Shown here in pieces: positions 26,203 to 41,005 of a stretch of 50,914 nucleotides of DNA (positions are counted from its first letter, which is position 1; each line of letters opens with the position of its first letter). Location of the stretch: IMG/VR virus record IMGVR_UViG_3300046167_000433, positions 1 through 50,914 of that record, one strand, 5' to 3'. The notes below the pieces were generated by a model. That model was given only the letters and a program-made list of their open reading frames with translations. It searched no databases and had not been told where the DNA came from. The DNA is from a virus. Lineage: Duplodnaviria > Caudoviricetes. The position numbers and the translations under genes were made by a program.

Positions 26203-29200
26203 GTGCGCGTAAAATATCGCAGAGGCGACAGCAGAAACTTTCAAGAAGAGCAGGATAAAAGCTACCTTTCAGAATTTACTTCTGGATTTTCCTCTGGGGT
26301 TGATACAACCCTTGGAAGCCTTGGTGGTGTTCGCTCTCTTTTCAACTCTATAACTGGAGATGAAGAAGAGGCAATTGAGTATCTGAACTACGCTCAGAGA
26401 AAGTTTCAAGAGGCAGGCGAATCCAGCGGCACGGTTACCAACATCGAGGATATAGACGGGGCTTCCGACTTTGTTCGATGGGCCACCTATTCGGCTGGCA
26501 CCATCCTGCCTTCCATCGCGACCAGCATTGCTGGAGGCGGCATTGGTGGCGCTGTAGCGCAGGGCGTAGCGAAGAAATTTACAAAAGATCGAATACAAAG
26601 AGAGGTTAAAGACGCGGTTGAGGACAAGGTTTCTGAGCGCGTAAAGAAACGAATTCTTAGAGAGACGCTTGACGCGGATACCGCTGGATATAGAACGCTT
26701 GGACAGGCGGTCGGAACCTTTGGAGCTTCTGCCGCGCAAAACACAGGCGGCACCTTCGTAGACATATACGAAGAGACAGGAATAGAGGCACCTGATGTAG
26801 CACTTGCGGCGGGGGTTGCCGCTGGCGCATTAGATTCTGTTTTACCGTTTGTCGCCCTCAAGAGAATAATGCCGGATACGGTATTTAATAAGTTCAAAGA
26901 TGGGGTGGCAGACAAGCTCGTTAAGAATGGAGGCGTTACTCGCCGCGTTCTTTTGCAGGGCGGTTTGTCTGCTGGAGCCGAGGGCATCACAGAGGCAGGA
27001 CAAGAGCTTATACAGGCGACTGCTGTGGGGATGATGCGGAACGACCCCATGGGAGGATATGCAGAATACTTCGATGAGTTCATCAAGAACGTCAATAATC
27101 CAGATGATCAGTTAGTTAGTCGCCTTCTGAATGCGGCGGCAGTTGGAGCTATTGGCGGGGCCGCTACAGGAAGCTTTACGGGTGCGCTGAACCGCAAAGA
27201 GAATAGAGTCGATGACGTTAGGGTTGATAGAGAACCCACTACCGACACTGTCGAAGAGGATGCTCCGGATGGAGCAGAGACGGTTCCTGATGCAAATGAA
27301 GTGGATCCAGAGACTCAATCTATACTTGAGGCCGCTCGACAAGATCAGCGTGATGCTCGCCGCAAGGCTCAAGGCTTTCCTCAATCTATGCCTGACATTA
27401 CAGACAGAGACGTTGATGCTGAGACTGATGCGCGTGTAGGTGAAGCGCAGGTCAGACAAAGAGCGGCGGCGCGCAGAGCGCAAGGTCTACCAGAGCAGGC
27501 AGTAGATCGAGAAACAACATCTCCAGAAGAGGCTCGGAATGCTCGATACGAAACAGACTTAAACGAGTCTCTTCGCAGATCTTTGAGAGCTAGAAAGGTT
27601 GTTAATGAAATCATTCCTGCTTCTATTTTTGAAACGGGAGACGCCACGCCTGAAGAGAATGCACTCGCCGCCAAAGAGGCTGAGAAGTTAACAGTTATTC
27701 CGAGCGGCCCGACTATTGAGCTTGGCCCTGATCGAACCATGGAGTCTTTAGAGCGAAGCTCAGTAGATTATCAGGGCATTGAGGGCACTCTTACCCGACG
27801 TGAGGATGGTGTCTACGTTGTCGTGACGCCGCAGGGTGATCAGGTTGTAGTGGAGAGCGGTGAATCTGACGCCGGATCTACCGCCGCTACTTTATTAGGT
27901 GTAAGGCCGAAAGATGTTGAGGTCAATACTCCGGACTCAGAGGCTCAGTACAACGCAGACGACGACACCTTTGTGGCTCGCGGAAAGACTTATCGCTATA
28001 TAGATACTCAGCGCAATAAAGACGGTGAGGCCGTTGCGATTAACGCGGAAACCATGAACGGCCAGCCGCGTGTGTTTAGAAGCAAGCGAACCGTTCAGGC
28101 CGTTGAGGCGGAGCGAGCTAGGATACAGCAGGAGTTGATGACTCAGGACTTAGCCACTGGGCAGGCGCAGTTCGATGACTTATCCGATAAGTTACAAATG
28201 GCTGTATTCGACCAGAGGGAAGCTCAAGGTCTGGATACAACCATAGATGAAGTTACGATTGAAGAAGTTCAGGCCGCAATTGCGTCCTCTCCAGCCGGAA
28301 TTCAGTCCGCTCTTCAGCAAGAAACGGAAGCTCTTTTCAGTAGAACTGATCAGACTGAATTTGATGTTCGACAAACCTTTGATGCGGCAGACCAGTGGCT
28401 CTCTTTTGAGGGGGATGTGGTCAACGCTAATCAGGAAACTCTTGAGTCTCGTCAGGACAGGATCGATGTCCTTGCTGGACAGCCTACGAAGCCAGCAAAC
28501 AGCGACGACCTTATAACAATACGGGCAATCGAAGGCATAGCCGAAAAGATTGCAGATGCTATGCGCCGTCCTACGTTTTTCAACGAAACAGTAGACGGCA
28601 AGCAACAGAATGTCGAAGCAAAACCAATGGATAGCCTTGGGGATGCCGACACGATAAACGAGATTCAGCAATCGATATTCGATCTTATCGAAGCTGGTCT
28701 TCCTGTAGATTTTGTAAGCCAAATACAGGCTCTGGCAACTCACTCTCCTGCCCAGTCTCAGGGACTTGGTGCCACGGTTTCAGACAGAATGTCTATTGAA
28801 TCCAGTTTAGTATCCCAATCTACTACAGATGCTAATGCTGACAGAGAGTTGAGATATGTATTAGCGCATGAAGCGTGGCACGTTCTCGACAACGCTAATG
28901 ATATTAGCGGCCAGTTGCCATCATTCAATGCAGAAGTCGTCTTCAGCGGCGAGGGGCCGAAGGTTGTTTTGGGTGATGCAATTGCAGATCTCTACGAAAA
29001 CTACCTCCAGAAGACTGAGTTGGGGCGTAGATTTACCTACCCGTTTAATGAGATTGAACAGCAAGCTGGCCCCGCTACAAACGCAGAAGACCTTGCGGAA
29101 TTTATTCGCAAGGAGTCTTTCGCTCAGCTTGGTGCGGTATACCTAAGCAACCCAAAGTTACTTAAAGAACAAGCGCCAGAGGCGTACAATGTAATTCGCA

Positions 29201-32200
29201 CTATTCGGGATAACCCGACACTTGCGACTGGAGAGAATGATGCGAGAGTTCAAGATACCAACGTCGGAGTACAGCCCGAAGGTACAGGAGTACAGGGAGA
29301 AGTTCGGCCATCCACCGTCAGCGGAAGCGCTGAAGTGGAAGCGGACGGAGGATCTGGAGAAGCTGGCCTCGATGGCGCTCAAGCGGGGCAAGCCAATCAG
29401 GGAGTGGGCGGAGAGACCCAACAAGAAGCTGGGGACGGTGACGGATCTACTCTACTCCAAGAGCGAGTAGACGAAACCCCAGAACAGGGGAGCTTGTTTG
29501 CAAGACGCTTAAATAAAAAGCCTTCAAAGCAAGAGCAGTCTCGCCGAGACTTTATTAAGAAGATGGCTACAGTCGCTGTCGTCTCTGGATCGGGTGTAAA
29601 AGGAACGTCTTACTATACTGAGATCGCCTCAAATCCAGATCTAGTTCGCGGCAAGGCTAAGCCAATCTCTAGCTTCGTACAGCGCTCACTCCCTGAAGAG
29701 TCTGTATCTGCGTTCGCGTTTGGAGATCTGCCTAAAGCCATAGACATAGCGGTCGAAGGAGCGCCGCAGGACGTAATTGCGCTCGCGGAAAAAATCAAGG
29801 CAACCCTGCCAAGCCAAGATCTGTATGACACAGACGTACAGCGCGGGTTGTGGAATGTCGCAGGCATGGTCAGCATGGAAGACAAGCCGACCATATCAAT
29901 AATGCCAGATACGAAAGACTCTGGAATGACCGCAACCTTGCTTCATGAGGCGATGCACCTCGGAATTGCGGCTAGATATAGATCATTAAGCACTGCCGTC
30001 TCATCTAGAAATTATGAGCTACTGGGCATGGATCAGCCTAAAGCAAGAGAGGCTTTAGATCAGTGGTATAGCTTGTGGGGCGAGTTTAGAAGAGCGGCCA
30101 ACCCAAATCTTCAAAATTCAAATGTTAAAAACCTTCCTCCTGAAACTCGTATTGCGTATGGAAAGCCAGACGAGTTTTTTGTCAGGGCTTTAACTCAACC
30201 AGAATTTCAGCAACAGCTCCATGATTTAAATTACGAAGGTAAAACATTTCTTTCTAAATTTAAGGACTGGGTAAAGAAGTATCTGTTTGGCCCTGATACT
30301 GGTGTACAGCCAACATATCTCGATGCGGCACTAACGGCGGCGAATGATTTGCTCGATGCGTCCATGCTAGATAGCCCAGATTTCACGTTCATGAAGAACG
30401 TCAATATTAACCTTGCGGAAGAGAGAGGCGGCACACAAGACGAATCCGCAAATCCTCCTACCCTGTTTGTTAGGCGTCTTCTTAAAGGACTGTCAGATCA
30501 AGAAAGTCAGGCAGAGGCATCGACCCTCTTATCTGGAGAAGAGTCCCTACAAGTAGAGGTCACCGGAAAAAATAATCGGCGCACAGTAACCGACGTTTCT
30601 CGGGCGCTGGACACGAGAACTTTACAAATTTTCGGTAGAACTCTCGCTGATCGAACAGACGAGAATGCTGAGATAGTATCAAATATTATGGCGGCAGAGG
30701 CAGAGTACGCTCTGTCTAGAGACGGCAATGCTGGGGAGTGGTATCAGCAGAAAGTCGCTAACGCAATGATGATTGCAGAAGAGGTATTTCCAGACCTCAA
30801 GGACAGCCCCAATCAGCAGGCTATGTTTAAAGCCGCTCTTGCGATCACATCTAACGGTTCGTCTGTAGATGAAAACTCAGCCAACACAATCAATAAAGTT
30901 TTCGGAAAGTATATAGAAACCGGAAAGTTTCCGATTGTTGGGTATGGCAAAGAATCTCCAACCATGAAAAAGAGCTTCAAGCTCCTTAACGTCATGATTG
31001 AGGAGATGGGGCTGGACAATGTAAGAGAGTTTCTTTCTAACGACTTTACTGTGCGTGAACTTAAAGCGGCTGGCTTTTCGGTAAACGGAGAGGGTGTCGA
31101 TACGGTTGTAAAGGGAAGCGCCATACTCGGCCCAAAGATCGGACAGGGGTTTTATCAAAACCTTCAGGCTAACTACAACACCCTGACAATGGATCTTTGG
31201 TACATGCGCACTTGGGGCCGTATAAACGGCAACCTGATGTCGGACTCTGACAGAAAGTTTCCTGAATCTCTGCAAAAGTTTCGTGAAGCAGTCTTGGAAA
31301 ACGAGAAAGCCAGACTCCGAAAAGAAGGCATAAATGTTTCTGACTTCAAAAAAGATGACGAGGTCGCTACTGACCTTGCCGTAAAAATGAACGGTGAATT
31401 TGCTCGCGGCAACTACAAGAACAAGACCCCAGCAAACAATGCGGCGAGAAACCTAAAGAACGCTACAAAGGCACAAGAAACTCCTCGCGGATCTCGTGAA
31501 CGAGAGTACATGCGCAAGGTAACTAGAATGGCGGTGGACAAGCTCAATGCGGCCACCGGAGAGAACATAAACACAGCGGCATTTCAGGCTTTGATCTGGT
31601 ATCCTGAGAAGGATCTTTATAACAAGCTGGGAACCCCGAACAAGAAATCGGAGCCAACAGATTATGAAACAGAATTCGCAAAAATCGCCAAAGAAAGAGG
31701 CGTCAGTGAACAGGCAATATCGCGAATCCTCGGACTGGAGCAACAGTCCGGAGCAGGAGGAGTTCAACAAGACTCTCGAAGCGATGCCGGAATCGAAGAT
31801 GCGCCTAGCGGCACAGAGCCTCAGCAAGCTGATGAAGAGCAAGGGTTAACAGAAGCTACTGGAGTCGCTGGAGAAGGGCAACAGCTAGACTCCAATGCAC
31901 CAACATCATTCGTAAAGAGACTTTCCGGCCAGACAAAATCATACGACGACGCTCGCAATGATGGGACGCTGATGGATGGGAAGCCGTCTACCAGCGAGTT
32001 CAATCTGGATGACGAGACCCGAACCGAAGCGGTCATTCGGAAACTTCAAGACAAGTACCTACCCCTTAAAAAGTTTGAGGAGAAATCCGCAGAGTTCTTG
32101 GGGCTGAAGGAGCTACCAGAAAGATTCCGAACCTATATCGGCGAGACACTGCACTCAGGAAAGGTCAAGGACGACAACGACCGTCTTGAGCAGAATTACA

Positions 32201-34731
32201 TAAGGCCGATTGGCACAATACTGCGAGAAAACAGCATCGACGTAGATGACTTTGGCATCTATCTAATCGCTAAACACGCGCCAGAAAGAAACAGTTACAT
32301 CGCAAGCATTAACCCCGCGATACAGGAGGCGGGATCCGGCATGTCTAATGCAGACGCTGAGCGGGTTATAGCTACGTTTGAATCAGACGGCACAGCCAAA
32401 GCCATGAATGAGGCGGCTGACCTTACCTACAAGATGCTTGCAGAAAACCGCAAGAGGCTGACTGAGTCGGGTCTCGTTGACGACGATACGGTAGACGGCT
32501 GGAACCAGCAATATAAGTTCTATGTGCCCTTAAAGGGTTTTGCGGCGTCTTTGGATGAAGACAATAATATAGTGGCACCGAAAGGCTTGCCCAGAGGTTT
32601 TAGCATCTCAGGTAAAGAGGTCTTGGCCGCTCTCGGCAGAACCACGCAGTCAGACAACCCCTTACTTTATGCGATGAACGATGTTGAAAACAAAATCGTC
32701 AGAGCCAGAAGAAACGAGGTGGCACAAAGATTCCTCGGCCTTGCTAGGGAGCTAAGCGGTAAGGGCAGTAAACAGCTAACGGTTTATGAAGACCCCGCAT
32801 CATTCCCCATGGACAGAGAAAGATCCGGTAGCCAAGTCCGCGAAAAACGCATGGATGCTTTTGACATGCGGGATGCCGTAAGAAAGGAGGATAACAAGCC
32901 ACGATTCCTATCGGTCAAAGAAGACGGCAAAGAGATCTTTATCGAGATCAAAGATCAGGCTCTCAACAACGCAATGCATAACGTAAGCGCTGAAAACTTT
33001 GACAGCCTTGTCACGTTCCTTGGCCAGAACATGAACTTTCTTCAGAAGTTTCAGATATGGAGACGTAACACGCTCATCAACTACAACCCAAGTTGGTTCC
33101 TGATTAACCCGCTCCGCGATATACAGACTGGCATCATGTACACGATGTCAGAAAGTAGTAAGTCAGGCGGCATGATTGAAGGAGAGGCAATAACTGGCGA
33201 CATCCTCGCCGGATACTTTCCAGCCGCTCGCGCTTACTTCAAGAACCTGCGTGGCGGAAGGGTAGACTCAGAGCTAGACGAGTACTTTGATGAGTATCAG
33301 GCTTCTGGCGCACCGACTGGACTGACGCTGACAAGAGAAATTGATGAGCAGAAAAAGCGGTTAGAAAATATTATTACCGAGGGCAACCTAGTCTCTAACA
33401 TAAGAAAGGTCGGTGACCTTGTGCAGGACTTAAACACGGCCTCTGAGAACACGGTTCGCTTCGCCGCTTACGTTGCGTCAAGGCGCAATGGTGTGGAAGT
33501 AGAGAATGCCGCTAATCTTGCTAAAAATATGACGGTGAACTTTAACCGCAAAGGAGAGATGTCTGCTGGATTAAATGCTTTCTATCTTTTCTTTAATGCG
33601 GCGGTTCAGGGTACGGCAAACATAGCCCAAGCTATGACCGGAAGGACAGAATCTGGAGGACTTAACAAAGCGCAGATGGCGGCTGTAGGGATCGGCCTGA
33701 CCGCTTACATGATTACAGAACATAACATTCTCGGCGCAGAAGAGGACGACGATGGCGAGTCCCTTTACAAAGATCTGACCGGATACGACAAGCTGATGTC
33801 ATGGAACATTGTGCGGCCAGACGGGGAGAGCTTCTTTCAGATCCCCATGCCTTACGGATATGGAATGTTTCACACCATGGGGCGGCTCTCGGCAGAGTTA
33901 GCTCACGGGCTAATAGATGAAAACGACTTTGCGGCAGAGATCACTGCGGCAAGTGTTCATCACTTCCTACCTCCGCCCCTTGGTTTTGTTGGGGCTGTTG
34001 GCACCGAAGATGATTTGATGGACTTTACCTCTCGGGCAGTGATCGATCTTGTCCCAGACATCATTGAGCCATTTGCATCTTTGTCGGCCAACATGAACCA
34101 CTTTGGATCTCCGATTTATCTTGAGCAAAACTCCCTAATGGATTCGGCCCCTGACTCATCCAAGTCAAAGCGATCTACCGAGAAGGTATATAAGGAAACA
34201 GCGCAGTTCCTTAACGAAGTTTTTGGTGGATCTGAGTTCAGAAAGGGCGGCGTGGACTTGTCTCCGGATGCCATCAAGTACGCAACCGAGTTTGCTACCG
34301 GCGGTCTAGGCAGGTTCATCAGCAGGTCTTCTGATGTAGGAATTCTGATGGCCAATGAGATAGAGAAGGATGATCCGTCATTGGGGGAATTTCCAATCCT
34401 AAGATATTTTGTCGGTGAGCCGTCTCAGTTCTCGGACAAGGTTGAGTATTACGAAGGCATTAGAGATCTTCAGGAAGTATTCAATGAAGCGGAGGCCTCG
34501 ACTGGAGATGATCGCAGACAATTCTTAGAGAAGTTTGGGGGCAAGGTCAGACTTGAACCTCTGTACAAGCAGACCCAAAAACAGCTTCGTGCATTACGGC
34601 AGAAGAAGAAGTCCATTGAAAAGATGCAGTCGGATCCGGCAAGAGCCTACGATCAGATTCAAAGAATAGAGGCCCAAATGGATTTGCTGTTTGATCGATT
34701 TAACAAGAAATATCGAGAGGCTAATAAATGA
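26203..34731 (+). CDS. Giant polyvalent ejection protein: two HExxH zincin modules, HhH-like module, C-terminal LPD38-like domain
   Basis: 2842 aa; HEAWH (28867), HEAMH (29944); GPKIGQGFYQNL...TMDLW; AKNMTVNFNRKG...FYLFFNAAVQG. Confidence 0.8.
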   Translation: MRVKYRRGDSRNFQEEQDKSYLSEFTSGFSSGVDTTLGSLGGVRSLFNSITGDEEEAIEYLNYAQRKFQEAGESSGTVTNIEDIDGASDFVRWATYSAGTILPSIATSIAGGGIGGAVAQGVAKKFTKDRIQREVKDAVEDKVSERVKKRILRETLDADTAGYRTLGQAVGTFGASAAQNTGGTFVDIYEETGIEAPDVALAAGVAAGALDSVLPFVALKRIMPDTVFNKFKDGVADKLVKNGGVTRRVLLQGGLSAGAEGITEAGQELIQATAVGMMRNDPMGGYAEYFDEFIKNVNNPDDQLVSRLLNAAAVGAIGGAATGSFTGALNRKENRVDDVRVDREPTTDTVEEDAPDGAETVPDANEVDPETQSILEAARQDQRDARRKAQGFPQSMPDITDRDVDAETDARVGEAQVRQRAAARRAQGLPEQAVDRETTSPEEARNARYETDLNESLRRSLRARKVVNEIIPASIFETGDATPEENALAAKEAEKLTVIPSGPTIELGPDRTMESLERSSVDYQGIEGTLTRREDGVYVVVTPQGDQVVVESGESDAGSTAATLLGVRPKDVEVNTPDSEAQYNADDDTFVARGKTYRYIDTQRNKDGEAVAINAETMNGQPRVFRSKRTVQAVEAERARIQQELMTQDLATGQAQFDDLSDKLQMAVFDQREAQGLDTTIDEVTIEEVQAAIASSPAGIQSALQQETEALFSRTDQTEFDVRQTFDAADQWLSFEGDVVNANQETLESRQDRIDVLAGQPTKPANSDDLITIRAIEGIAEKIADAMRRPTFFNETVDGKQQNVEAKPMDSLGDADTINEIQQSIFDLIEAGLPVDFVSQIQALATHSPAQSQGLGATVSDRMSIESSLVSQSTTDANADRELRYVLAHEAWHVLDNANDISGQLPSFNAEVVFSGEGPKVVLGDAIADLYENYLQKTELGRRFTYPFNEIEQQAGPATNAEDLAEFIRKESFAQLGAVYLSNPKLLKEQAPEAYNVIRTIRDNPTLATGENDARVQDTNVGVQPEGTGVQGEVRPSTVSGSAEVEADGGSGEAGLDGAQAGQANQGVGGETQQEAGDGDGSTLLQERVDETPEQGSLFARRLNKKPSKQEQSRRDFIKKMATVAVVSGSGVKGTSYYTEIASNPDLVRGKAKPISSFVQRSLPEESVSAFAFGDLPKAIDIAVEGAPQDVIALAEKIKATLPSQDLYDTDVQRGLWNVAGMVSMEDKPTISIMPDTKDSGMTATLLHEAMHLGIAARYRSLSTAVSSRNYELLGMDQPKAREALDQWYSLWGEFRRAANPNLQNSNVKNLPPETRIAYGKPDEFFVRALTQPEFQQQLHDLNYEGKTFLSKFKDWVKKYLFGPDTGVQPTYLDAALTAANDLLDASMLDSPDFTFMKNVNINLAEERGGTQDESANPPTLFVRRLLKGLSDQESQAEASTLLSGEESLQVEVTGKNNRRTVTDVSRALDTRTLQIFGRTLADRTDENAEIVSNIMAAEAEYALSRDGNAGEWYQQKVANAMMIAEEVFPDLKDSPNQQAMFKAALAITSNGSSVDENSANTINKVFGKYIETGKFPIVGYGKESPTMKKSFKLLNVMIEEMGLDNVREFLSNDFTVRELKAAGFSVNGEGVDTVVKGSAILGPKIGQGFYQNLQANYNTLTMDLWYMRTWGRINGNLMSDSDRKFPESLQKFREAVLENEKARLRKEGINVSDFKKDDEVATDLAVKMNGEFARGNYKNKTPANNAARNLKNATKAQETPRGSREREYMRKVTRMAVDKLNAATGENINTAAFQALIWYPEKDLYNKLGTPNKKSEPTDYETEFAKIAKERGVSEQAISRILGLEQQSGAGGVQQDSRSDAGIEDAPSGTEPQQADEEQGLTEATGVAGEGQQLDSNAPTSFVKRLSGQTKSYDDARNDGTLMDGKPSTSEFNLDDETRTEAVIRKLQDKYLPLKKFEEKSAEFLGLKELPERFRTYIGETLHSGKVKDDNDRLEQNYIRPIGTILRENSIDVDDFGIYLIAKHAPERNSYIASINPAIQEAGSGMSNADAERVIATFESDGTAKAMNEAADLTYKMLAENRKRLTESGLVDDDTVDGWNQQYKFYVPLKGFAASLDEDNNIVAPKGLPRGFSISGKEVLAALGRTTQSDNPLLYAMNDVENKIVRARRNEVAQRFLGLARELSGKGSKQLTVYEDPASFPMDRERSGSQVREKRMDAFDMRDAVRKEDNKPRFLSVKEDGKEIFIEIKDQALNNAMHNVSAENFDSLVTFLGQNMNFLQKFQIWRRNTLINYNPSWFLINPLRDIQTGIMYTMSESSKSGGMIEGEAITGDILAGYFPAARAYFKNLRGGRVDSELDEYFDEYQASGAPTGLTLTREIDEQKKRLENIITEGNLVSNIRKVGDLVQDLNTASENTVRFAAYVASRRNGVEVENAANLAKNMTVNFNRKGEMSAGLNAFYLFFNAAVQGTANIAQAMTGRTESGGLNKAQMAAVGIGLTAYMITEHNILGAEEDDDGESLYKDLTGYDKLMSWNIVRPDGESFFQIPMPYGYGMFHTMGRLSAELAHGLIDENDFAAEITAASVHHFLPPPLGFVGAVGTEDDLMDFTSRAVIDLVPDIIEPFASLSANMNHFGSPIYLEQNSLMDSAPDSSKSKRSTEKVYKETAQFLNEVFGGSEFRKGGVDLSPDAIKYATEFATGGLGRFISRSSDVGILMANEIEKDDPSLGEFPILRYFVGEPSQFSDKVEYYEGIRDLQEVFNEAEASTGDDRRQFLEKFGGKVRLEPLYKQTQKQLRALRQKKKSIEKMQSDPARAYDQIQRIEAQMDLLFDRFNKKYREANK

Positions 34732-37616: not shown

Positions 37617-38675
37617 TTAAGGCTCGATTCTGAGCGCTAACACTGGCAGTGTTGAGGTCGACGGTTCGATCCCGTCTGGCTCCACCACCATTCTACTAGG
37701 CCGTTTGACCGTAACACTTACGGAAGACGGTCTATCTATAACAGAATGATCTATACCAGCTTTCGCTGACCCATTCTGCGTATAGGATTTACTCGGCACC
37801 GAAGCACCGTTGTTCACGAAGTTCTGCATGTCCATGTTGGCAAGATGCATGTAACGCTCCAGCATCGCCATACTGCTCCAACCCCCCAACTTCTGAAGCA
37901 GAGGCATCGGTGTGCCTGCTACCGCATGACGGGTTGCCCATGTGTGTCTAAGATCGTGAAACCTCACTGACCCTATCTCTGCGCGGTCACAGGCGCGTTG
38001 CCACACCTTGTTCGTGACACTGGTGCGCCTACTGATAGGGTTGCCATTACGCTTCGTGAAGACGTACTCACAGTCCTGACCACGATCCTGCTGAGCCTCA
38101 TGCATGTGATCCAAGATAGCCAAAGCACTCTGCGATAGAGGCACCAGCAAACGCTTGCCGGACTTCATCTTAGAACCTTTGATATCTAGCATCCCATCCT
38201 GCACCTCACTCCACAGCAGGCACTTGACGTTCGTCACGCGCAAGCCAGTGGCCAGTGCAAAGCGCACCATCTGTGATTGCAGTCTGGGAAGGCAGAACAG
38301 CAGTCGTTGAACTTCTCGCTCATCTAAGACTCTAGGTTCGCGAGCATCCTCAGACACATTCAGGTTTTCGTATGATGGGACATGCTTCGACTCGATCAGC
38401 CCACGCTTGTTCTTTGCGTAGTTGAGTACAGCAATAAAGTAACGCAACCGAGAGTTGATGGTCGCGCTCCTAAAGCCTTTCTCTTGCAGATCTTCGACGT
38501 AATCTGTCACGTCACAAACTCCAAAGCTATCGATTGGCCGGTTGCCGTAACGCTCAATGGCTTCCTCGATAGCGGTGTTAGCCGCCGGACTTTTAGGCCT
38601 TCCTAGCCTTTTGCTCGGTTGCTTTATGTAGCGCTCAGCAACTTGCCGAAACGCTACCATTTCGCGGTCACTCAT
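37617..38675 (-). CDS. int: Tyrosine integrase
   Basis: TGLR, KSGK, FHDLRHT, LGGW, RY catalytic residues; GAGGAG RBS before ATG 38675. Confidence 0.93.
   Translation of the reverse strand: MSDREMVAFRQVAERYIKQPSKRLGRPKSPAANTAIEEAIERYGNRPIDSFGVCDVTDYVEDLQEKGFRSATINSRLRYFIAVLNYAKNKRGLIESKHVPSYENLNVSEDAREPRVLDEREVQRLLFCLPRLQSQMVRFALATGLRVTNVKCLLWSEVQDGMLDIKGSKMKSGKRLLVPLSQSALAILDHMHEAQQDRGQDCEYVFTKRNGNPISRRTSVTNKVWQRACDRAEIGSVRFHDLRHTWATRHAVAGTPMPLLQKLGGWSSMAMLERYMHLANMDMQNFVNNGASVPSKSYTQNGSAKAGIDHSVIDRPSSVSVTVKRPSRMVVEPDGIEPSTSTLPVLALRIEP
37632..37687 (+). other. attP core: 3' two-thirds of tRNA-Ala(GGC), not a complete tRNA
   Basis: AACA-CTGGCAG-TGTT anticodon arm (GGC 37645-37647), AGGTC, GACGG-TTCGATC-CCGTC T arm, TGGCTCC-ACCA; no 5' acceptor strand; overlaps integrase end. 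Confidence 0.85.
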
Positions 38676-39072
38676 ATTCGCTCTCCTCATTACTGAAGAA
38701 GCTGTCGCCGAACCGCTTATCGATAGTACCCCAAACGGGCGGCGTTTTTGAACGCCTTAGCTTCTCGGCTTTGTAAATAGCTTCATCTTTGGTCATGAAT
38801 TCATGGCCTACCTGCCAGACTTCGTCACCTTCCCCGTTGCGAGTACGCAAATTCTCTGTGGTGGCGGGGTTTAATCTAACGGGGACAACAGGGCGGAAGT
38901 GCATTCTCAGCAGGGTCACCCATAGCCTTTCTGGGTACTGCCGATTCAATTCATCGATGTGCCGAATCTTTACTCTGAGCGCGGCACCACGCCTCTTATC
39001 TGGCGTTTTTTGCGATTCGATTTCCTCGGAAGATCTTGACCTGCGAAGGCGCTTCAAATCTGAGTAGTCCAT
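38668..39072 (-). CDS. Basic hypothetical protein upstream of integrase
   Basis: GAGGAGG RBS before ATG 39072 (MDYSDLK); stop overlaps int start region. Confidence 0.6.
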   Translation of the reverse strand: MDYSDLKRLRRSRSSEEIESQKTPDKRRGAALRVKIRHIDELNRQYPERLWVTLLRMHFRPVVPVRLNPATTENLRTRNGEGDEVWQVGHEFMTKDEAIYKAEKLRRSKTPPVWGTIDKRFGDSFFSNEESEYE

Positions 39073-39412
39073 TTGTCCTCCTCTGCTCGACCCCCGATGT
39101 TGCTTGTCCGCACCTAGCGCACTCTGTTTCAGCGCTGGAGTACATCTTTGTCCCCTCGTAATAAATGCGGACGCCCTGTACCTCAACTGGATTCGGATGC
39201 TTCTCCATCAGCGCCACCTCCAGCACGTTCTGATCTTCGTAGATATGCAACACCGCCACCGTTGTTCTTTTTAGAGTCATGATTTCCATCAGCGTGACCT
39301 TAAAGTCACAGGTGTTAGGTGCGTCTTTCTGGTTGAGATTTGTCCCGCAAAAAACTGTCTGACCAACGCTTCTGCCCAGCACAAAGTTCTTTAGTCGAGG
39401 GTCGGCTCTCAT
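38996..39412 (-). CDS. Divergent CsrA/RsmA-like protein with large internal insertion
   Basis: FVLGRSVGQTVFCG resembles CsrA LILTRRVGETLMIG; LRFEAPSQVKIFR resembles CsrA IGVNAPKEVSVHR. Confidence 0.6.
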   Translation of the reverse strand: MRADPRLKNFVLGRSVGQTVFCGTNLNQKDAPNTCDFKVTLMEIMTLKRTTVAVLHIYEDQNVLEVALMEKHPNPVEVQGVRIYYEGTKMYSSAETECARCGQATSGVEQRRTNGLLRFEAPSQVKIFRGNRIAKNAR

Positions 39413-39530
39413 GGTTATCGCCCTCTACCATGATCGAGGTCTGAGACAGGGCGATTTACCAAACATCCTTGTCTGGCACGATGAGTCGTGTGCGCCGACG
39501 ACACGCTTAGGAGTCGCCTCAGACCCTTTT
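39413..39530 (-). promoter_or_regulatory. Structured RNA leader with CsrA-type AGGA hairpin and anti-RBS helix
   Basis: GCCAGACA-AGGA-TGTTTGGT; GGTCTGAGGC/GTCTCAGACC; ATCGCCCT/AGGGCGAT (all minus strand). Confidence 0.6.
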
Positions 39531-39980
39531 TCAAAACGGAATGTCGTCGTCTTCAAACTCCTCGATGGCTTCCTGCTGAACAGGTGCTGACCCGCTTACC
39601 GGCTGGAACCCCTCGGGCACTCCGCCGCCAGCTTCTTCGAGGACTTGAACTTGATTGACGTAGGTCGAGCAACCGTGATCCTTGTAAGGCTCTTCTGCAA
39701 TCGCCGCTAAGATTTTGACCTTCGAGTTGAAGGGAATCTCACCCTTCTCCCATGCACTCAAGTCGGGATTAAAAATACCTACGTCATAGGTAGTCGAGAA
39801 CTTTCTCTGCGGAGTTCCCTTATAATCTTTAACTTGCACTCCAGCTTCAGTGAGCGCCTCGGCATTGGCCGCATCAAGCTTCACCGTGATGGTGTACTTG
39901 TCTGTGCTTTTACCCTGATAGGTGTCAAACTCTTTGAGGTTGCAGAACGCCACCTCACCTTCAACGTACATTTTTTTCAT
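39531..39980 (-). CDS. ssb: Single-stranded DNA-binding protein (phage OB-fold, DUF2815/gp2.5-like)
   Basis: Acidic DDDIPF tail; YVNQVQVLE; beside exonuclease and SSAP. Confidence 0.8.
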   Translation of the reverse strand: MKKMYVEGEVAFCNLKEFDTYQGKSTDKYTITVKLDAANAEALTEAGVQVKDYKGTPQRKFSTTYDVGIFNPDLSAWEKGEIPFNSKVKILAAIAEEPYKDHGCSTYVNQVQVLEEAGGGVPEGFQPVSGSAPVQQEAIEEFEDDDIPF

Positions 39981-39982
39981 GA

Positions 39983-41005
39983 TCAGTCTCCCATTTTGAC
40001 TTTGATTTGGCGTGTGTTGGATGAGGATCTAAAGTCTTCTAGCTCATGGCCGTTTGACAGCAACGCCGCCTCACCACCAATAGCTTCAAATCCCTTCCGG
40101 AAATCGAACGATGCTTTGCGCTTGATGCACTGCAATTGGATGACACCATCCGTCACGTTCCTGTTCGAGTACTTGTCAGCGACGACTTTCTTCGCGTCAT
40201 TCACCACGTTTTCGAGACCCAAAATCTCTCCGAGAATGGCTGAGTGTTCCGTCCTCAGTTCGTTGAGACGCACCATTGCCTTGGAAAGAGTCTCCATTTC
40301 ATCGCCCTTGACGACCTCGTAAATGTTCTCAGCAGAGTCGGTATGAACTTTCCTCCGAGACAAGTTCTCGTATTCAGAGTGGATGTACTCATGCCATTCA
40401 ATGTAGAGATCGATGCGAGGAATCGTTCCCTTTACCGGCTTGGGTAGCAGGACTTTCGGTAGCGGCTCATGCAACCAGCCCTCTTCGCGATGGATCCGCT
40501 CGATGTTGTACTCGGGTTCTGCATCGGCGTGGGGTGACAGGTAGCAAAGAAAGTCCAGCCAATCCACATCCAGCACCTCCATGACCAACTGGCACTGACG
40601 CAAGTACATCTTCTTCTTTTCGTCCCAAACGCTGTAGGGAGCCTTTGTGAATCGAGGGTATGGGCACTTGATCTCGATAGAGCCATCCAGTCCGACAAGG
40701 CCGTCTGGCGAAGCTCCGAGAAACTCATACATTGGATGCACAACGAAGTCGGTTTCATCTACGGTGGTGTTAAACGCTCGCTCGTACCACTCCTTAGCAA
40801 CTGACTCCATCATCTGACCGTGTGCAACTGCGGGGCCACCGTTAAACTCTGACGGCGCTCCGGCTAGGTCTCGCACCATAGACCTGACAAGGTCATCTGG
40901 CTTTTGATACGGATTGCACTGCTCTAAAACACCAACGGCAGTTCCGCTTATCTTTCCTTTTCTCTGCTCAAGCCATTCGACTGAACCCTGTTCTACAGCC
41001 GCCAT
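39983..41005 (-). CDS. YqaJ/lambda-exonuclease family recombinase
   Basis: QGSVEWLEQR.GKI, LGASPDGLV, IEIKCP, Y..QCQ. Confidence 0.9.
   Translation of the reverse strand: MAAVEQGSVEWLEQRKGKISGTAVGVLEQCNPYQKPDDLVRSMVRDLAGAPSEFNGGPAVAHGQMMESVAKEWYERAFNTTVDETDFVVHPMYEFLGASPDGLVGLDGSIEIKCPYPRFTKAPYSVWDEKKKMYLRQCQLVMEVLDVDWLDFLCYLSPHADAEPEYNIERIHREEGWLHEPLPKVLLPKPVKGTIPRIDLYIEWHEYIHSEYENLSRRKVHTDSAENIYEVVKGDEMETLSKAMVRLNELRTEHSAILGEILGLENVVNDAKKVVADKYSNRNVTDGVIQLQCIKRKASFDFRKGFEAIGGEAALLSNGHELEDFRSSSNTRQIKVKMGD

Follow-up and report, generated by a model that had tools for sequence, protein, structure and literature searches.

A candidate translational operator built from interlocked pseudoknots upstream of a small all-beta protein gene in uncultured marine phages

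We analyzed the region upstream of a 138-codon open reading frame (ORF138) in the virus record IMGVR_UViG_3300046167_000433 (Duplodnaviria; Caudoviricetes), a 50.9-kb viral sequence whose completeness is rated 97%; "the window" below means its whole length of 50,914 nucleotides (nt). The region lies in a leftward operon that runs from an ORF resembling a helix-turn-helix repressor through a Sak-type single-strand annealing protein (PF06378), a YqaJ exonuclease (PF09588), an ssb-like gene, the leader, ORF138 and a 134-codon ORF (ORF134) to a tyrosine integrase (PF00589). The spacer between the ssb-like gene and ORF138, together with the first four codons of ORF138, is modelled here as six helices, some of which cross and which include the Shine-Dalgarno (SD) sequence and the start codon. 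The features are as follows.

39401..39530, minus strand, full structured leader: the 118-nt spacer plus ORF138 codons 1-4, found in 22 distinct homologous versions
39413-39530, minus strand, the 118-nt spacer from the ssb-like gene to ORF138
39516..39525, minus strand, P1 5' strand GGUCUGAGGC, pairing with 39447-39438
39506..39515, minus strand, J1/2 GACUCCUAAG, modelled as unpaired, with CUCCU in 22 of 22 leaders
39487..39505, minus strand, P2 hairpin, CGUGU/ACACG (or GUGU/GCAC one register over), with the invariant GUCGGC in its loop
39499-39494, minus strand, PKa 5' strand, the GUCGGC of the P2 loop
39478..39485, minus strand, PKb 5' strand CUCAUCGU, an anti-start sequence pairing with 39415-39408
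39458..39477, minus strand, P3, an AGGA loop on an 8-bp stem, an optional module
39448..39455, minus strand, P4 5' strand AUCGCCCU, pairing with 39424-39417
39438..39447, minus strand, P1 3' strand GUCUCAGACC, inside the P4 loop
39417..39424, minus strand, P4 3' strand AGGGCGAU, overlapping the SD-like GAGGG
39408..39415, minus strand, PKb 3' strand ACCAUGAG, positions -3 to +5 including the AUG
39401..39406, minus strand, PKa 3' strand GCCGAC, ORF138 codons 3-4 (Ala-Asp), complementary to the P2 loop
38996..39412, minus strand, ORF138, 138 codons, AUG at 39412-39410, the proposed regulated gene

Three of these helices had been described in an earlier note made from the letters of this DNA, and all three are present. 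The GGA hairpin, GCCAGACA-AGGA-UGUUUGGU (P3), has 8 pairs including two G-U and contains ACAAGGAUGU, which agrees at 10 of 10 positions with ACARGGAUGU, the core of the CsrA consensus obtained by systematic evolution of ligands by exponential enrichment (SELEX). The helix said to enclose it (P1) has 10 pairs, one of them G-U. The third (P4) covers the GAGGG 8 nt before the AUG, and coordinates re-extracted by script confirm that it crosses P1. The GGU/ACC extension proposed for this third helix did not hold up: it is not conserved, and its ACC (39415-39413) is used by PKb, whose pairing with 39485-39478 is supported by covariation. Both the minimum free energy (MFE) fold and the centroid fold from ViennaRNA contain P3 and P4. 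On this sequence alone the helices are not beyond chance; the comparison with relatives does exceed it.

Relatives were gathered from IMG/VR and JGI metagenomes with scans guided by proteins and by sequence patterns, and they come from uncultured marine phages; a protein-pattern scan of genome contigs returned no relative. Collapsing identical copies gave 22 distinct leaders (20 at first, then L363 and L364). L008, which breaks off at the ssb stop before any leader, was excluded, and L369, whose leader equals that of L339, was not counted. Twenty of the 22 leaders lie on contigs that protein-only searches also retrieve, and the other two (L295 and L342) were found solely through a DNA pattern requiring GTCGGC and ATGRGAGCCGAC. 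Every retrieved relative has the gene order ssb, leader, ORF138, and the flanking proteins diverge to 70% identity for the ssb-like protein and 45% for ORF138. Pairing was counted over the 22 leaders in ungapped registers fixed by sequence anchors, with CUCCU of J1/2 used as an anchor in every sequence. A realignment based on a covariance model put near-identical rows in differing registers around P4 and P1 and was left out of the counts.

P1 is canonical in 187 of 198 cells, including all 154 at core positions 1-7, and has changes on both sides at 5 of 9 positions; its variants are GGUCUGAGGC/GUCUCAGACC, GGGCUGGGA/UCCCAGCCC, GCUCGGGC/GCCCGAGC and GGUCGGGC/GCUCGACC. For P4 the canonical cells number 128 of 154 (88/88 from position -10 to -7), and 5 of 7 positions have changed on both sides. 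The covariation scores, 0.368 for P1 and 0.470 for P4, compare with 0.142 and 0.167 in column shuffles and were reached in 0 of 500 shuffles in either case. When the partner strand was shifted by 1-3 nt, 13-66% of cells were paired (20 sequences). Covariation across homologous ssb-ORF138 spacers, the check named in the earlier note, therefore came out in its favor: P1, P4 and the stem of the GGA hairpin are kept with compensatory changes, and the proposed conserved leader that occludes the ribosome-binding site (RBS) of the downstream gene is borne out by covarying helices in 22 distinct leaders. Because these helices persist through compensatory changes while the flanking proteins diverge, a chance origin is largely refuted.

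P2, PKa and PKb are three helices beyond those listed in the note. In 20 of 20 sequences P2 came out as the best local helix, and every time its loop contained [CU]GUCGGC. Of its 132 cells 120 are canonical, without exception at positions 3-6 (88/88), and 4 of its 6 positions have changes on both sides. In PKa both hexamers are invariant (132/132 cells, both-side changes at 0 of 6 positions), and the synonymous third positions of codons 3-4 never vary, though ORF138 proteins fall to 45% identity. A locus was sought for P0025, a protein whose residues 3-4 differ (S-G, against A-G in P0026), as a test of PKa covariation, and no new locus was found. PKb is canonical in 169 of 176 cells with both-side changes at 3 of 8 positions, and its compensatory variants are CUCAUAGU/ACUAUGAG, CCCAUGGU/AUCAUGGG and CCCAGCCU/AGGAUGGG. 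In L363 and L364 the start codon is GUG, and the corresponding PKb pair turns into U-G. On a plain MAFFT alignment, RNAalifold returns exactly PKa plus PKb. On the unfitted MAFFT alignment the three helices together are 96.1% paired, with a covariation of 0.280 against 0.122 when shuffled (reached in 0/500) and at most 0.090 for slid partners. Covariation was thus found in P1, P2, P4 and PKb, with PKa invariant. Many of the pairs are G-U, so the structure is specific to the sense RNA strand.

Along the RNA the strands follow in the order P1-5', P2-5', PKa-5' (in the P2 loop), P2-3', PKb-5', P3, P4-5', P1-3' (in the P4 loop), P4-3', PKb-3' and PKa-3'. P1 crosses P4, PKb and PKa, and P2 crosses PKa; by their coordinates, no nucleotide is common to two helices. 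The loops of P2 with PKa (1 nt, 0-2 nt and a long third one) are of the size found in a classical H-type pseudoknot. Between P1 and P4 there are 0-2 nt, so the two can stack, which would give a quasi-continuous duplex of ~18-20 bp, and 11-13 nt are available to cross P1. Judged by general pseudoknot geometry, both pseudoknots would be sterically ordinary. The lack of shared nucleotides and the proper pseudoknot geometry together make a single knotted fold likelier than a switch between alternative folds. The earlier note had offered a pseudoknot or an alternative fold for the crossing of P1 and P4; the crossing itself and the loop lengths speak for the pseudoknot, whereas a switch by strand competition fits less well with helices that share no nucleotides. 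The 3' strand of P4 covers positions -12 to -5 of ORF138, PKb -3 to +5 and PKa +7 to +12, and the stretch from -12 to +12 is in duplex under a single knot and under alternation alike. The leader thus has the marks of a pseudoknotted operator: crossing helices with comparative support, and the SD and start codon inside the structure.

On balance, and by a modest preference, we read the leader as a translational operator that would lock the initiation region of ORF138, with the accessory hairpin P3 docking a CsrA-type protein. The spacer and ORF138 codons 1-4 would act in cis as one fold of ~130 nt on the polycistronic leftward early transcript. In this fold, P1 and P4 would form one H-type pseudoknot, with the 3' strand of P1 sitting in the P4 loop, and P2 and PKa would form a second, in which the GUCGGC loop pairs with codons 3-4. 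PKb would extend PKa past a one-base bulge to pair with the start codon, and P3 would sit at the junction of PKb and P4. With positions -12 to +12 held in duplex by P4, PKb and PKa, binding of the 30S subunit would need the knot to open. The knot would then throttle or gate ORF138 synthesis relative to the upstream recombination genes, presumably by repression. A CsrA-family protein on P3 would tune the stability of the knot; this partner could be host CsrA, or ORF138 itself if it is a divergent CsrA-fold protein. The best reading of the element is a new translational operator that matches no Rfam family and resembles pseudoknotted operators and riboswitches in kind.

The distance from the ssb stop to P1 is 6-7 nt in the leaders, a spacing that is reliable in the rows beginning at UGA, and with this constant distance a terminating ribosome would abut P1. 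At the other end, the earlier note had allowed for an effect on the integrase through gene overlap. Obligatory coupling is unsupported: the next gene has a strong SD of its own (GAGGAGG), which makes an onward effect on the integrase possible and not required. Recoding at the ssb stop (CCG UUU UGA with a 6-7 nt spacer and a pseudoknot, which has the look of a +1 frameshift or readthrough site) was considered and rejected: the UUU is not conserved, being UUC UGA in L009 and L010, and the alternative frames close after differing lengths.

P3 closely resembles a CsrA site. According to the accessible text of one source, the SELEX consensus is RUACARGGAUGU and GGA is preferred in a hairpin loop (PMC4347634). 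The sequence AGACAAGGAUGU agrees with that consensus at 11 of 12 positions, with ACA and GGA both present. Across the relatives, the loop and closing pairs CA[AG]GGA[UAC]G are kept over differing stems (CCAGACA, UCAGACA, CCUGCA, UCCACA and CCUACA). The earlier view of the hairpin as a very good CsrA-type site thus gains from a conserved loop on a covarying stem, and CsrA-family docking at P3 is most likely, with the identity of any factor suggested by this motif. A regulon spanning the phage was rejected: the window contains 7 copies of CARGGATG where 3.3 are expected, a count reached in 4 of 100 shuffles, and none of the other copies lies in a comparable hairpin. Codon 2 (39404-39412 region) is GGA in 10 of 22 leaders, this phage not among them. 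All 7 of the 7 leaders without a GGA in P3 have it, versus 3 of the 15 with one, which leaves no leader without a GGA close to the knot; this pattern is suggestive and confounded by relatedness. In addition, the CUCCU of J1/2 (39509-39513) resembles an anti-SD sequence, and the UCCU within it complements AGGA/GGGA of the P3 loop (39466-39469). With such pairing, a tertiary contact would be possible, as would a role as decoy; the pairing shows no covariation, and CUCCU stays where P3 lacks GGA.

The earlier note also called the downstream gene CsrA-like. Here no sequence match rose above threshold, and the hints that exist, from structure and from sub-threshold matches, are weak and consistent. 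ORF138 is an all-beta protein of a small phage-only family and matched no Pfam (E<=0.1) or PHROG family. A six-frame search of the whole phage with PF02599 gave no match at E<=10, and a sequence profile search of PDB with ORF138 gave no CsrA. Alignment to E. coli CsrA with hhalign had probabilities of 1% and 7% over 16 N-terminal columns only; the CsrA relatives retrieved for a profile were all at least 88% identical to E. coli CsrA and unusable as such. The AlphaFold model (predicted local distance difference test score 84) is all-beta. With this model, Foldseek found nothing in PDB at E<=0.001 and no CsrA among the 50 matches listed. The matches in BFVD (E 1e-4 to 1e-2) are small phage proteins, including one that bears the name carbon storage regulator (E 1.1e-3, template modeling (TM) scores 0.48/0.57), and in the ESM Atlas the model compared with a 94-aa cluster, 69% of which carries PF02599, at TM 0.59/0.84. 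Sub-threshold PF02599 matches occur in 6 of 14 family members (best E 0.0083, 16.5 bits against a cut-off of 27), ORF138 of this phage itself giving none. These alignments place residues 10-24 on CsrA profile positions 2-16 and residues 105-120 on positions 32-47.

R14 and R129 are invariant in the extended ORF138 family and fall within the segments that align, in two members, to these CsrA profile positions. In E. coli CsrA, the RNA-binding arginines are R6/R7 in strand 1 and R44 in strand 5, and by eye R14 and R129 are placed like these. If the two proteins are related, ~65-85 aa have been inserted in ORF138 between an N-terminal segment (10-25) and a C-terminal one (~116-133). We give about even odds to ORF138 being a CsrA-fold derivative with such an insertion; by no curated test is it a member. 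Residues 34-91 (about 39140-39313, minus strand) match repeat units in two very large library proteins, P0030 (4375 aa, 16 stretches, E 7.5e-12) and P0031 (887 aa, 9 stretches), and the insert may be a borrowed beta-repeat domain.

Several observations weigh against the operator reading. In the window alone, the leader has an MFE z-score of -1.83, with 10 of 200 shuffles folding equally well, and a nested-fold model puts the ORF138 initiation region only 13th in degree of pairing among 61 ORF starts. The registers of P1 and P4 were picked after the helices had been seen, and with only ~9 sequence types the shuffle tests overstate independence. PKa has invariant hexamers and so no covariation, resting on invariance; two of the 22 sequences (L295 and L342) were retrieved by the pattern that demands both of its hexamers, and the PKb of this phage has one C:C mismatch, in a type comprising 5 sequences. 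The nested folds P1/P2/P3 and PKa/PKb/P3/P4 differ by at most 11.4 kcal/mol everywhere and by less than 5 kcal/mol in 15 of 20 sequences, so alternation between them has some probability; the case for simultaneous formation of all helices is built on topology and loop lengths. Translational repression by the leader, and the binding of a factor at P3, are what we infer from the helices and their overlap with the initiation region. A plain AAGAGGA SD, with no leader of this kind, precedes P0029, a distant homologue of ORF138 (loci L344 and L345); the leader is therefore a feature of one clade.

The CsrA side of the reading faces its own difficulties, which belong to the same tally. The GGA of P3 is present in 15 of 22 distinct leaders and absent from 7, in four lineages, with the other helices retained. 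L020 and L030 lack exactly the 17 nt of P3 and otherwise match L011, and L027, L295/L342 and L363/L364 have non-GGA hairpins in its place. Since P3 is deleted or replaced in these 7 leaders, it is a module and not the core of the element, and the conservation of the GGA loop anticipated in the earlier note holds for the 15 while the rest of the leader stays without it in the 7. The CsrA dimer binds two sites, and typical targets have two or more, one of them at the SD. The leader of this phage, including its SD and start, has a single GGA and no second one.

The readings that compete with this one also have to be considered. A more specific form makes the leader the double-pseudoknot operator of an insertion-bearing CsrA-fold protein, where that protein or a hijacked host CsrA would read the GGA hairpin in an autoregulatory circuit setting the expression of ORF138, ORF134 and the integrase; we hold this tentatively, as possible and on the unlikely side. 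The earlier note itself had proposed a protein-responsive switch through which CsrA, from the host or as a phage paralogue, controls translation; as a two-state model, P1 and P4 would be alternative folds, and CsrA binding at the GGA hairpin would decide between them. The conserved, RBS-occluding leader with a CsrA-type hairpin stands, and a switch would suit the near-consensus hairpin with its conserved loop, the weak CsrA-like hints for ORF138, and the closeness in energy of the nested folds, between which the MFE structure flips among relatives. However, helices without shared nucleotides offer no strand competition, the loop lengths suit simultaneous pseudoknots, and one knot is likelier. 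The hairpin is not core, being missing or without GGA in leaders that keep all other helices, the leader of this phage has a single GGA, and CARGGATG is not enriched in the phage. We consider the switch unlikely.

A small-molecule riboswitch of a new class would have the knotted core as its ligand pocket and P3 as a dispensable part, with the ligand stabilizing the fold that hides the initiation region. Invariant unpaired junction nucleotides (CUCCU, the GUCGGC loop and A-rich joints) do adjoin covarying helices, the peripheral hairpin is variable or optional, the SD and start codon lie within a pseudoknot as in pseudoknot riboswitches, and there is no Rfam match. Yet the gene downstream encodes a phage protein of non-metabolic type, the element is limited to one small phage clade, where it precedes a single gene family, the conserved sequence of the P3 loop suggests a partner that is protein or RNA, and there is no candidate ligand. 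This makes a riboswitch improbable.

An element of RNA processing or stability, either a protective structure at the ssb 3' end or an entry point for RNase III or RNase E at the stacked P1 and P4, would uncouple the recombination genes from the lysogeny genes. In its favor, the element begins 6-7 nt past the ssb stop, and the stacked P1 and P4 would give the long quasi-continuous duplex. The sole RNA-library contig over the site (39442-39592) ends within the leader, a very weak pointer from a single low-depth contig; it is one of three such contigs over the region (with 39187-39364 and 39895-40072), which do not show transcription. The pairing of the start codon and codons 3-4 and the compensatory changes that track the start context are left unexplained by processing, and there is no terminator-like site at the leader: neither an intrinsic terminator nor a promoter was predicted in the spacer, with region-wide counts at chance level. 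We see little likelihood in it. That the leader has no function, close kinship explaining its conservation and chance its helices, draws on the lack of significance in the window alone and on the few independent lineages and is scarcely credible, given compensatory changes in five helices while flanking proteins fall to 45-70% identity and the failure of slid and shuffled controls.

Compared with known systems, the operator reading finds partial parallels. Autogenous operators built on pseudoknots at the initiation region include E. coli rpsO with S15, the alpha operon with S4 and T4 gene 32, and a protein that stabilizes a closed or trapped complex would be expected here too. The likeness is one of kind, a pseudoknotted leader that includes the SD and start codon, whereas here two interlocked pseudoknots with six helices occupy an intercistronic spacer of a phage operon. 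SAM-II and preQ1-II are pseudoknot riboswitches that sequester the SD; the leader shares with them an H-type pseudoknot with a ribosome-binding 3' strand, invariant junction nucleotides and a variable peripheral hairpin, and differs in having no Rfam family, no metabolic gene downstream and a narrow phage clade. Like leaders repressed by CsrA or RsmA, it has a GGA in a short hairpin loop flanked by ACA...UGU in a 5' leader beside an occluded RBS. Unlike them, it has its single GGA ~45 nt upstream of the SD without overlap, the hairpin is optional (15/22), and RNA helices rather than protein occlude the RBS.

CsrA homologues on mobile elements, as far as the accessible parts of the sources show, comprise csrA homologues in 30 of 2517 phage genomes (PMC7366521), the plasmid homologue RsmQ (PMC9928087) and prophage csrA in marine metagenome-assembled genomes (MAGs) (PMC11295528). 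The phage studied here would likewise be a mobile element possibly with its own CsrA-type regulator, marine phage examples being on record in those same parts; it differs in that ORF138 has 138 aa against ~60-110 aa and fails the Pfam CsrA model. No cis leader is described for phage csrA in the accessible parts of PMC7366521 and PMC11295528. No paper on such a leader turned up in literature searches that were not aimed at the leader itself and that had subscription journals and supplements outside their scope. Rfam gave nothing within 39400-39535 at E<=10, and in 6 relatives nothing where the leader lies (E<=1).

Structured leaders that control lysogeny-side genes of phages are known from a few model phages only. 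The leader adds one from uncultured marine temperate phages, in which five helices are supported by covariation and the interlocked topology is unusual, and it could be registered as a new RNA family. At ~130 nt it offers a test bed for the gating of initiation by pseudoknots inside a polycistronic mRNA. Should ORF138 prove to be the partner of the GGA module, the leader would be the first cis target described for a CsrA-like protein carried by a phage, and the CsrA fold would gain an insertion-bearing form of 138 aa. Should a metabolite bind the core instead, it would be a new riboswitch class.

The neighboring genes of the operon are listed below.

39531..39980, minus strand, ssb-like gene, 149 aa, C-terminus DDDIPF, UGA stop at 39533-39531 (from the ORF list and sequence)
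38668..39071, minus strand, the next ORF (ORF134), 134 aa from an AUG at 39071, with its own GAGGAGG SD within ORF138
37617..38690, minus strand, tyrosine integrase, final gene of the leftward operon (PF00589, E 1.5e-28; phrog_1)

Relatives of the ssb-like protein, at 70-100% identity, precede the leader in all cases. The protein matched no Pfam family at E<=0.1, and a PHROG search gave just one weak match, to a group without an assigned function. It carries a classical acidic DDDIPF tail despite having no Pfam family, and it may represent a divergent family of single-strand-binding proteins. ORF134 matched no Pfam or PHROG family. Its overlap with ORF138 is 76 nt (38996-39071) in the -1 frame, and both frames are open in every relative examined. 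The database protein P0026 runs from the ORF138 frame into the downstream frame; this fusion could be an indel, a gene-call artefact or frameshifting.

The 3' end of the integrase gene overlaps a 56-nt stretch (37632-37687, plus strand) whose identity to the 3' portion of tRNA-Ala(GGC) genes from many Gammaproteobacteria reaches 95%, a probable attP core as judged from this likeness. The C-terminus of the integrase (…VEPDGIEPSTSTLPV…) is encoded across those 56 nt. The stretch was matched in 329 of 400 sampled genomes (class of G003, a Chromatiaceae MAG), a tally that takes in three genomes flagged as unpublished (G312, G145 and G300), and it had no match in one Ruegeria genome nor in one Woeseiaceae MAG. 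This hints weakly at a gammaproteobacterial host, and nothing firm follows from it on a host csrA gene. A blastn search against cultured phages gave no match, and the nearest TerL is that of Roseobacter phage CRP-7, at 36% identity. Near the integrase end of the relative L295 (4618-4807, minus strand) there is a weak match to transfer-messenger RNA (19.2 bits, E 5e-4), so related phages may use another attachment gene. Elsewhere in the window, a single ORF of 2842 codons (26203-34731, plus strand) stands at the end of the structural module.

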